64,000 nucleotides of DNA from Chlamydiota bacterium (GCA_022601345.1 JAJACU010000038.1:15162-79161); one strand, 5' to 3'; positions 47,383 through 49,309 are shown, counted from the stretch's first letter. Program-made: numbers and translations. The notes: generated by a model not told the origin, from the letters alone.

Positions 47383-47503
47383 TAAACAATAGTGTGGCAT
47401 ATGGTTTAAGTACTCCTTCGTCTCTTAAAGCTAGAGTTAATGTACCAAATCTTGCAAAAGATTTACTCTGGTTTCAAAAGGTTCATAGAAAAAACCTAAA
47501 ACC
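47383..47503 (+). repeat. Direct repeat copy A (~121 bp)
   Basis: Hand alignment to 49188..49309 gives 11 substitutions and 1 indel. The sequence begins TAAACAATAGTGTGGCATATGG. Confidence 0.9.
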
Positions 47504-47682
47504 CTTTGGATAAACGGATTGAATTAACAATTTTGTTATATTAAAAAAAAAGTATTAAGTGTGCTCTCTGCTAATATTAAAATAATTTTTATTGTAAACT
47601 TATTTTAAAAATATATAATTTTAGTTAAAAAATATCTTTTTTGTTATAATTTTAGTTTTTAGTTAAAGTTTAATTTCTTTCT

Positions 47683-49197
47683 ATGGTTAATGTTAGTTTA
47701 AATAGCAGCTCGATCTCAGGCTTACGATTTGGGCTCAAAAATCCTGTTGAAGAGTCTTCGTCGTGTTTTTATTTTGAGTTGTTCTCTCAAGGAATTAAAT
47801 TAGGCAGTCTGCTCAATGTTTCTCCTTTTGCTAAACTTGGTTTTTATGCACTAGGATTAATTTCTGGCATTGTTCAAAACAAAGAGTGTAAGCCAAAAAC
47901 AAGCTACTATAGCTTTAGTGAAGCTGCATTAGATATATCTAGATTTAGCTTTTCTCTATCTTCTTTAGTTCTTGCTTCAAGATATCAGAGGATTGTATAT
48001 TTTGCAGTCCAACCTATTTTTTCTCTCATTCAGCAATATCAAAGAGATAGTCTTTATGAAAGAAGTGCTTATAATGCAAAATTTGAAAAAGCCGTTAGTC
48101 AACAGAATTTTACAAAGTTCCAAGAGGCATTGGGTCAAATTGAGCCAAATAGTTACTTTGGGTCATATTCTTATTTCAACAAAAAACCAGTTTATACCCC
48201 TTTGGGACTAGTTGCTAGAAAGGGTAATGATCAACAAGCTAAAGTTTTAGTTGCTGCTGGAGCAAATCCAAGTCAGCGCTTAGGTATAAAAAAATTTTCT
48301 ATAACCCCTATTCAGCTTGCAGCAAAGATTGGAAATACAAAAGTTTTTTCTTTTTTTTGTCGCAAGTTTCCAAAAACCACTCAAGATGAAGCTCCTTTAG
48401 GTAAAACTTTATCTGAGTATGTTTTTTCAATACCTGTTGCGCATCATGCAATTTACAATGAGCTTGTAAAAGCAAAACCTACAACACCAGGGCATGTATT
48501 TCATCAAGCTGTCAATTATAAATTAGGTCTTAGTCCTAAAAAATCAATAAAAGTAGTACAAGCTTTGATGCAGAATAAAATTGGAAACCCACAAGATAAA
48601 GATCACTCAAACTTTACTCCTTTACATACGTTAGTCAGTATGCGTTATTTCTTTGAGCTTGTTCGCCCTAAGTTACATTTAGATTCAGAATTAGTTCTCG
48701 AAGTTCAGAGGTTTCAAAAAGAACAGGAAGCTGTAGCAGATATGGATAGCGCATCGCGGTTTATGATAGCCGTAATGGAACATAGTCATGAGCACACATT
48801 GGGAATGATTGATCTTTTGATTGCAAGTGGCATTGATGTTAATGCTCAAGATGTTTTTGGAAATTCAGCGCTTCATTGGGCTATGTACATAAATTCACAT
48901 CAAGATGTTATTGACGCTTTGAAAAGTGCAGGTGGCAATATGCAATTAAAAAATAATGCTGGTTGGACGCCCAAAAGAATACATGAAACCCTTCAAACTA
49001 TTAAATCAAAATTGCGAGCTGATTTTTCGAGCTTGCAAGCTGACTTTTCGAACTTAAAGCTTAGTATTGAAGAAATAGGTTTAGCTAATTTGAAACTTGG
49101 GACATATCAAGCAGCTTTTCGAAAATTTCCTGAAGAATACCAAAGGTCTATTTATCAGCGCTATAAAAAGGGCCTTAAAAAGTTAGCTAACCAATAG
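47683..49197 (+). CDS. Ankyrin-repeat protein with hydrophobic N-terminal region
   Basis: Ankyrin repeats (TPIQLAAKIGN, FTPLHTLV, GNSALHWAMYINSHQDVIDALKSAGGN, AGWTP). Hydrophobic pair in the first 130 aa. Confidence 0.85.
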   Translation: MVNVSLNSSSISGLRFGLKNPVEESSSCFYFELFSQGIKLGSLLNVSPFAKLGFYALGLISGIVQNKECKPKTSYYSFSEAALDISRFSFSLSSLVLASRYQRIVYFAVQPIFSLIQQYQRDSLYERSAYNAKFEKAVSQQNFTKFQEALGQIEPNSYFGSYSYFNKKPVYTPLGLVARKGNDQQAKVLVAAGANPSQRLGIKKFSITPIQLAAKIGNTKVFSFFCRKFPKTTQDEAPLGKTLSEYVFSIPVAHHAIYNELVKAKPTTPGHVFHQAVNYKLGLSPKKSIKVVQALMQNKIGNPQDKDHSNFTPLHTLVSMRYFFELVRPKLHLDSELVLEVQRFQKEQEAVADMDSASRFMIAVMEHSHEHTLGMIDLLIASGIDVNAQDVFGNSALHWAMYINSHQDVIDALKSAGGNMQLKNNAGWTPKRIHETLQTIKSKLRADFSSLQADFSNLKLSIEEIGLANLKLGTYQAAFRKFPEEYQRSIYQRYKKGLKKLANQ

Positions 49198-49309
49198 TGT
49201 GGCATATAGTTTAAATGCCCCTTCCTCTCTTAAAGCTAGAGTTAATGTGCCAAATCTTGCAAAAGATTTGCTCAGGTTTCAAAAAGTTCATAGGAAAAAT
49301 CCTAAAACC
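49188..49309 (+). repeat. Direct repeat copy B (~122 bp)
   Basis: Starts in the last codons of the ankyrin gene (TAACCAATAGTGTGGCATATAG) and ends 2 nt before the stop of the convergent 49311..49688 gene. Confidence 0.9.

Follow-up and report, generated by a model that had tools for sequence, protein, structure and literature searches.

In Campbell-type integration, a nonreplicating plasmid enters the chromosome via a cloned region of homology and leaves direct duplications. Template-switch insertion-duplications of the FoSTeS/MMBIR type have been described in both eukaryotic and bacterial rearrangements. Integron cassettes are bounded by attC sites, and the repeats of Vibrio cholerae are approximately 120 nt long.

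Here, we analyzed a 64-kb stretch of chlamydial DNA (64,000 nt; referred to as the window), in which a single ankyrin-repeat gene lies between two direct copies, A and B, of a 130-nt unit. The window belongs to S4CHLAM6, 'Chlamydiae bacterium O_S4.2_6' (GCA_022601345.1), a MAG from the sponge Haliclona oculata (PMC9666466). This MAG comprises 1.74 Mb with a G+C content of 36.7% and is placed in the family-level lineage MCF-D (PMC9666466); the G+C content of the window is 36.3%. For the bracketed gene, the original prediction had offered three explanations: the footprint of a tandem duplication of an ankyrin cassette with later loss of one copy, cassette or att-like boundaries, and a small ORF or 3'-UTR element that is conserved and accompanies ankyrin genes.

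Compared with the described systems, the repeat is most like an ordinary example of a single-crossover or template-switch insertion-duplication, and no new genetic element is evidenced. As after Campbell-type integration, one insert is present between two direct chromosomal copies on the 100-nt scale, the edges are sharp, and recombination between the copies could in principle excise the insert again. Unlike in that process, the locus has no known vector, circle, or donor, its two copies differ by 11%, and the duplication is inferred from one genome. One FoSTeS/MMBIR event can likewise give a duplicate, an inserted template, and a second duplicate with sharp junctions, whereas here no junction microhomology is recognizable after 11% drift and the template has no known source. 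Integron cassettes share with the locus the repeat length, the single ORF between repeats, and a repeat that starts near the 3' end of the ORF. In contrast to attC sites, however, the unit lacks R''/R' core sites and palindromic folding and was found nowhere else searched, and the locus has neither an integron integrase (among the scanned ORFs) nor a co-oriented promoterless array. MITE and REP elements are also short noncoding intergenic units present in more than one copy; the unit differs from them in lacking terminal inverted repeats and a strong fold and in having two adjacent direct copies only.

Results

The predicted direct repeat was confirmed and proved slightly longer than the expected 121 bp or so. 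In the repeat search, copies A and B were 130 nt each, 1,805 nt apart from start to start, and 87% identical without gaps; in the 130-column BLASTN alignment, identity was 89.2%, the copies differing by 13 mismatches and by 1 gap close to the 3' end (Table 1). The 43-nt core of the unit had 2 exact matches in the sequence and 0 in 100 dinucleotide shuffles. An unfiltered nhmmer search with a profile of both copies returned the copies themselves at an E value of about 1e-45, with the next match in the window at an E value of about 1. The 64-kb window contains no other sizeable repeat, and the 130-nt repeat is by far its largest. Its G+C content is not unusual for intergenic DNA.

The copies have diverged by about 11%, and the longest identical run between them is 23 nt. 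Differences are not spread evenly: the ends of the unit are less conserved than its center, where about 66 nt contain 4 differences. At both edges the similarity stops sharply: identity per 10-nt block falls from 7 to 10 of 10 within the unit to 1 to 5 of 10 beyond it, and the 300-nt flanks of the two copies align no better than shuffled sequences. A simple tandem segmental duplication was considered and rejected, with only 130 nt of the 1,805-nt period shared and flanks that score like shuffles; the sharp edges and nonhomologous flanks exclude simple tandem duplication of a larger segment.

Table 1. Features of the repeat locus (positions counted from the first nucleotide of the window)
Feature	Coordinates	Strand	Remarks
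Alpha/beta-hydrolase gene	46522..47310	-	262 aa; start codon 67 nt from copy A
Unduplicated spacer	47311..47377		67 nt, hydrolase start to copy A
Repeat copy A	47378..47507	+	130 nt; between hydrolase gene (-) and ankyrin gene (+)
Candidate small ORF, copy A	47394..47513	+	GTG start, 39 aa, basic; unsupported
Hairpin AAATCTT-GCAA-AAGATTT	47447..47464		7 bp, AT-rich; same 18-mer in copy B, 49252-49269
AT-rich spacer	47508..47682	+	175 nt, 15% G+C, within bracketed segment
Orphan ankyrin-repeat gene	47683..49197	+	504 aa
Repeat copy B	49183..49312	+	130 nt; first 15 nt are the last 4 ankyrin codons and TAG; last 2 nt in stop codon of 125-aa gene
Candidate small ORF, copy B	49199..49393	+	GTG 1 nt past ankyrin stop, 64 aa; unsupported
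125-aa orphan gene (S4CHLAM6_13830)	49311..49688	-	Converges on ankyrin gene; stop codon abuts copy B

Both ends of the unit are related to coding sequence. As the original prediction had noticed, copy B starts in the last codons of the ankyrin gene, and copy A retains TTAGATAAACAATAG with no plus-strand gene preceding it. The start of copy B lies 15 nt before the ankyrin stop (TTAGCTAACCAATAG). The ankyrin ORF has no stop of its own; its last 4 codons and TAG come from copy B. In addition, copy B extends at its right edge (49312) into the stop codon (49311-49313) of the 125-aa gene, a feature absent from that prediction. Copy A occupies a divergent spacer and copy B a convergent one.

The genes around the repeat have few relatives. 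In the 504-aa ankyrin protein, Ank repeats at approximately residues 361 to 430 follow an N-terminal domain whose function is unknown. Among 5.8 billion proteins, only P0001 is related to it over the full length, with 26% identity. The 64-kb window, with at least six ankyrin genes, contains no paralogue of the 504-aa gene. The P0001 gene adjoins a resolvase pseudogene on a contig of another genome. No direct repeats were found around it on that contig, which stops 179 nt past the gene. A short resemblance to the unit 3' of the P0001 gene (ATAGTAGTGGCAT) was rejected as not significant (P = 0.15 to 0.23).

Of the sigma-70-like promoter matches in the region, the best (TTGTAA-16-TATAAT, 47592-47619, 10 of 12 positions) lies in the AT-rich spacer upstream of the ankyrin gene. 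The sole plausible promoter match for the hydrolase gene, the weak TCGTAA-18-TACAAT, lies in the 67-nt spacer. The best relatives of the hydrolase, at no more than 51% identity, belong to unrelated archaeal and Dehalococcoidia MAGs, and the loci of these relatives, being from unrelated phyla, gave no useful synteny context. The 125-aa protein has a hydrophobic N-terminus and an Ala/Gly/Val-rich C-terminus, and no relatives were found in the protein search. Elsewhere, the window encodes leuS beside a Kdo transferase gene, a PPi-dependent phosphofructokinase, and pyrG.

The arrangement was also recovered outside the MAG. A Logan contig and the window are identical along 20.7 kb that include both copies. 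Two ENA contigs, distinct from each other, have one copy each, again in the same context. Because these independent Logan and ENA contigs agree, the repeat is not an assembly artifact. According to exact-protein look-ups, all five contigs with the 125-aa gene have the same arrangement, with no strain polymorphism among them. The odd ends of some contigs carrying this gene are Illumina adapter sequence.

One plus-strand frame is open through both copies, in agreement with the original prediction, and it provides GTG-initiated ORFs of 39 aa and 64 aa. Their C-termini are unlike in both sequence and length, and the tail of the copy B ORF is antisense to the 125-aa gene. The earlier statement that about half of the substitutions are synonymous in this frame was only approximately true: of the 11 differences in the gapless 110-nt core, 4 fall in codons whose residue is unchanged, and a fifth third-position change shares its codon with a replacement. 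Random 130-mers of the same composition had an open frame of at least 39 codons in 28 to 42% of cases. At least 4 synonymous changes without a new stop occurred in 16% of simulations (P = 0.16), a test in which the frame was chosen beforehand and two copies provide little power. The open frame (P of about 0.3 to 0.4) and the synonymous changes (P = 0.16) are explicable by chance. One antisense frame shares the wobble positions of the plus frame; it is interrupted by stops and contains no start codon.

The unit and the sequence just 5' of it contain neither an ATG nor a Shine-Dalgarno-like sequence nor a promoter match. When a profile of the plus-frame peptide was searched against 1.84 billion representative proteins, three matches were obtained, all of them repeat proteins. 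These were treated as chance matches because their scores sum over several copies of a VN[IV]PN-like motif. Pfam searches with the peptide frames gave nothing of note, with a weak, nonsignificant ECM1 match (E value of 0.24) for the 68-aa copy B frame, and the protein search gave no candidate relatives of the minus-frame (antisense) peptide.

Structured RNA was likewise not indicated. Neither a gathering-threshold scan of the whole window against Rfam 15 nor a permissive scan (E value of 10 or less) of positions 47250-49450 matched the unit. Fold z-scores for either strand were -0.5 to -1.3 with RNA parameters, and those with DNA parameters were -1.6 to -2.6, with short local stems only. The sole structure kept in both copies is the 7-bp hairpin with a GCAA loop (Table 1), and at best 1 of 34 predicted pairs has a compensatory change. 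No convincing promoter or terminator site was predicted inside the unit, and the two copies are unlikely to act alike as promoters or terminators, since the genes around copy A diverge whereas those around copy B converge.

No wider distribution of the unit was detected. No third copy was detected in the 64-kb window by nhmmer (--max) or BLASTN, and the same two programs found no unit beside the other five ankyrin genes of the window. A wobble-degenerate pattern of the 29-nt core had 0 matches in species-representative genomes, JGI metagenomes, and viral contigs; the species-representative set evidently lacks this MAG, since neither the pattern nor the hydrolase retrieved it. The hairpin 18-mer alone had at least 120 matches in JGI metagenomes, and none among the matches listed extends past about 30 nt of the unit. 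With five ankyrin genes lacking the unit, no match in these collections, no true homologues of the peptide, and coding signals explicable by chance, the proposed small ORF or 3'-UTR element linked to ankyrin genes was not borne out. Within the data reached, what was found is essentially a unit at two sites, with no polymorphism and no expression signal, which the original prediction had named as the outcome that leaves a local duplication only.

Hallmarks of recombination sites and mobile elements were compared with the locus. A regular-expression search found no attC core sites (RYYYAAC or GTTRRRY) on either strand of either copy with 28-nt margins. End-to-end dyad symmetry was absent from the RNA and DNA folds, in which the 5' and 3' ends of the unit are unpaired. 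Searches with Pfam or NCBIfam revealed no tyrosine or serine recombinase and no transposase in the 47 scanned ORFs out of 60 of at least 110 aa, and the bracketed segment encodes the ankyrin gene alone, with no recombinase. The layout is not that of a cassette array, with flanking genes on the opposite strand and a separate promoter-like site for the ankyrin gene. Near the repeat, no tRNA or tmRNA that could serve as a target was present; the only tRNAs of the window are at 6621-6776. Terminal inverted repeats are lacking, the best match between the ends of the unit being 8 of 15, and the flanks show no target-site duplication. Cassette or att-like boundaries, as originally suggested, are not supported at a repeat that lacks attC cores, dyad symmetry, a recombinase in the scanned ORFs, and a tRNA target.

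Discussion

We tentatively favor the reading that copies A and B are the neutral footprint of one rearrangement, which may have put the ankyrin module between the 125-aa gene and the hydrolase gene. A self-contained module (AT-rich promoter and ORF, 47508-49182) would have entered a spacer of about 197 nt between two minus-strand genes, and the event would have duplicated the 130 nt adjoining the stop codon of the 125-aa gene, leaving one copy on each side of the insert. Two routes could produce this outcome in one step. By the first, circular DNA bearing a copy of the unit would integrate by a single (Campbell-type) crossover. By the other, replication would switch template, copy the ankyrin segment, and then return to the original template at a position 130 nt behind the one it had left. 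The sequence itself shows the repeat, the sharp edges, the placement of the copies relative to the three genes, and no signal of independent function; from it, we infer the ancestral gene order, the single event, and the mechanism of insertion. Short identity makes loop-out by homologous recombination inefficient, and with a longest identical run of 23 nt, deletion of the ankyrin gene by loop-out should be inefficient.

Several observations support the proposed duplicative insertion. When one 1,805-nt period is removed, the order becomes the 125-aa stop, 130 nt, 67 nt, and the hydrolase start, and this restores an ordinary spacer of 197 nt between co-oriented genes. The bracketed segment is a complete module, with the best promoter-like site, 15% G+C upstream, and an orphan ORF. 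The presence of the ankyrin end codons and stop in the unit, also in copy A where no gene accompanies them, points to a footprint as well. So does the lack of any independent function or wider distribution in the tests run.

Other points argue against this reading. A target duplication of 130 nt is far above that of any transposase, and to our knowledge none makes target duplications near this length. For the Campbell route, the incoming DNA must already carry the unit. For the insertion in general, no junction microhomology was recognizable at the insert ends. The better-conserved center of the unit could reflect constraint rather than chance. In addition, the five contigs with the 125-aa gene all have the same arrangement, and there is no empty-site allele among them.

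Among the alternatives, a relic of a tandem array is unlikely but more probable than the others. An ankyrin gene together with its 3' unit would have been duplicated, and the upstream paralogue would then have been deleted or replaced by the hydrolase segment, so that copy A remains. This agrees with a unit that begins inside the ankyrin ORF and with the L-x-x-Q-stop codons kept in register in copy A, and the six or more ankyrin genes in 64 kb show that expansion of the family occurs. However, at least two events are needed, and the loss of the paralogue must have extended precisely to the edge of the unit, 15 nt short of the stop of that gene. No ankyrin-like remnant lies to the left of copy A, the 504-aa gene has no paralogue in the window, and the coincidence of the copy B edge with the 125-aa stop codon is left unexplained. 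Duplicative insertion is preferred to the array because it takes fewer events. Thus, the original prediction stands as to class, a footprint of duplication or rearrangement being the best reading, whereas its version of a tandem cassette with later loss does not, as it requires more events and a second ankyrin gene of which there is no trace beside copy A. Somewhat less probable than the array is a small functional gene in two paralogous copies, encoding either a basic peptide of 39 aa or a small RNA centered on the hairpin. In the peptide version, translation would start at GTG and be coupled to the ankyrin stop in copy B, where the GTG is 1 nt past the TAG. One frame open in both copies, 4 to 5 silent differences out of 11 in the core, a center conserved above the ends, and a GCAA-loop hairpin that is intact in both copies are all compatible with such a gene. 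However, equally long open frames are common in random 130-mers (28 to 42%), the synonymous excess has a P value of 0.16, and ATG, Shine-Dalgarno-like, and promoter sequences are missing inside or just 5' of the unit. The 1.84 billion representatives contained chance repeat-protein matches only, Pfam had no match, and the C-termini of the two ORFs are unlike. The RNA version is opposed by the lack of an Rfam match, by weak fold z-scores, and by compensatory change in at best 1 of 34 pairs.

Readings that involve mobility fare worse. It is improbable that the unit belongs to a low-copy dispersed repeat family (MITE-, REP-, or IS-end-like), two members of which flank an ankyrin gene by chance. 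The search for copies covered 64 kb of a 1.74-Mb genome, and direct copies around a passenger gene recall composite or translocatable units. However, terminal inverted repeats (8 of 15 at best), a target-site duplication, a transposase in the scanned ORFs, and a third copy in the window are all missing, and so are matches in species-representative genomes, JGI metagenomes, and viral contigs. Moreover, two direct copies 1.8 kb apart with none elsewhere in 64 kb would be an unlikely outcome for such a family. We regard it as highly improbable that the unit is the site of an undescribed cassette system, free of an integron integrase, that shuffles ankyrin-type effectors in environmental chlamydiae, in which case the 1,805-nt period would be excisable. 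The least probable reading is that the units serve a site-specific system as attC-like or attL/attR-like sites for moving ankyrin effector cassettes. The geometry does resemble a gene cassette bounded by repeats of 120 to 130 nt, as in the Vibrio chromosomal integron, and the sole full-length relative of the ankyrin protein, P0001, has a resolvase pseudogene next to its gene. However, RYYYAAC and GTTRRRY cores, end-to-end dyad symmetry, a recombinase in the scanned ORFs, and a tRNA or tmRNA target are absent, the neighboring genes lie on opposite strands, and a promoter-like site of its own precedes the ankyrin gene.

If the preferred reading of a footprint left by an insertion is true, the locus provides a small, datable case of an obligate intracellular chlamydia gaining an orphan ankyrin gene, putatively one for host interaction, and the recipient would be an accessory region of orphan and horizontally acquired genes. 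As such, it is an anecdote for the evolution of effector repertoires, and no new mechanism is shown. The locus would matter more only if the unit recurs beside other genes in the lineage.

Around the repeat, orphan genes and horizontally acquired ones form a patchwork. The neighborhood also contains a second duplication relic, in which 50 nt of a thioesterase gene recur in inverted orientation, 37 nt of them perfectly. This inverted copy fits a rearrangement-prone accessory region, and together with the patchwork it supports the reading of copies A and B as a footprint.

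Possible horizontal acquisition of the hydrolase gene beside copy A

For the alpha/beta-hydrolase gene adjacent to repeat copy A (46522-47310), the closest relatives were 35-51% identical and were from Bathyarchaeia, Dehalococcoidia, Thermoplasmatota, and roseobacter-group genomes (Roseibium, Tritonibacter, and Tropicimonas). In the search for relatives, no chlamydial genome with a close relative of this gene was found. This distribution of the relatives found suggests that the hydrolase gene was acquired horizontally.

A dense accessory region extends over 37600-56100 of the window. 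Three of its genes encode ankyrin proteins, two encode 2OG-Fe(II) oxygenases, and two or three encode methyltransferases; it also contains orphan ORFs.

Features of the window and of contig L018 (JBPNRK010000011.1 of GCA_054030675.1)
Feature	Location	Remark
tRNA-Met (CAT) genes	window 6621-6776	tandem pair, 6 nt apart
Plant-type O-methyltransferase with dimerisation domain	window 45323-46381	among the methyltransferases of the accessory region
Inverted repeat arms	window 58408-58455 and 62156-62205	92% over 50 nt
Resolvase (serine-recombinase) gene	L018 4363-4917	in-frame stop
P0001 gene, ankyrin relative	L018 5257-6759	26% identity

Inverted repeat and gene-poor stretches

The two arms of the inverted repeat share a perfect core of 37 bases (58408-58444 and 62169-62205). 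A BAAT/acyl-CoA thioesterase-like gene (57257-58603) contains the first arm in its 3' part. The second arm falls within a gene-poor stretch of 885 nt (61452-62336), and the 3.7 kb between the arms contain an ankyrin gene (60387-61451) and two orphan ORFs. The repeat may be left over from a rearrangement, or the segment may be invertible. The stretch around the second arm and another of 1168 nt (56089-57256) are unusually long for regions that lack ORFs of 110 aa or more, and their G+C content of 35-37% is coding-like; these stretches may represent genes missed in annotation, or pseudogenes.

Neighborhood of P0001

The gene for P0001, the sole full-length relative of the 504-aa ankyrin protein, lies directly downstream of the interrupted resolvase gene. 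On the same contig, a direct repeat of 46 nt (96%; 63-108 and 3841-3886) flanks a DUF8085/ankyrin gene neighboring P0001.

Contig ends and tRNA pair

Illumina adapter remnants (AGACGTGTGCTCTTCCGATCT) were present at the ends of public ENA/Logan contigs of the repeat locus (at 1888-1920 of L023, and at the very start of both L023 and L024), and one of these contigs also had a short tail past window position 46429 that did not match the window. Both were rejected as sequence variants and are assembly artefacts.

The 3' halves of the tandem tRNA genes were only ~74% identical, and the two are probably different tRNA species with a common anticodon (for example, initiator tRNA, elongator tRNA, or tRNA-Ile2).
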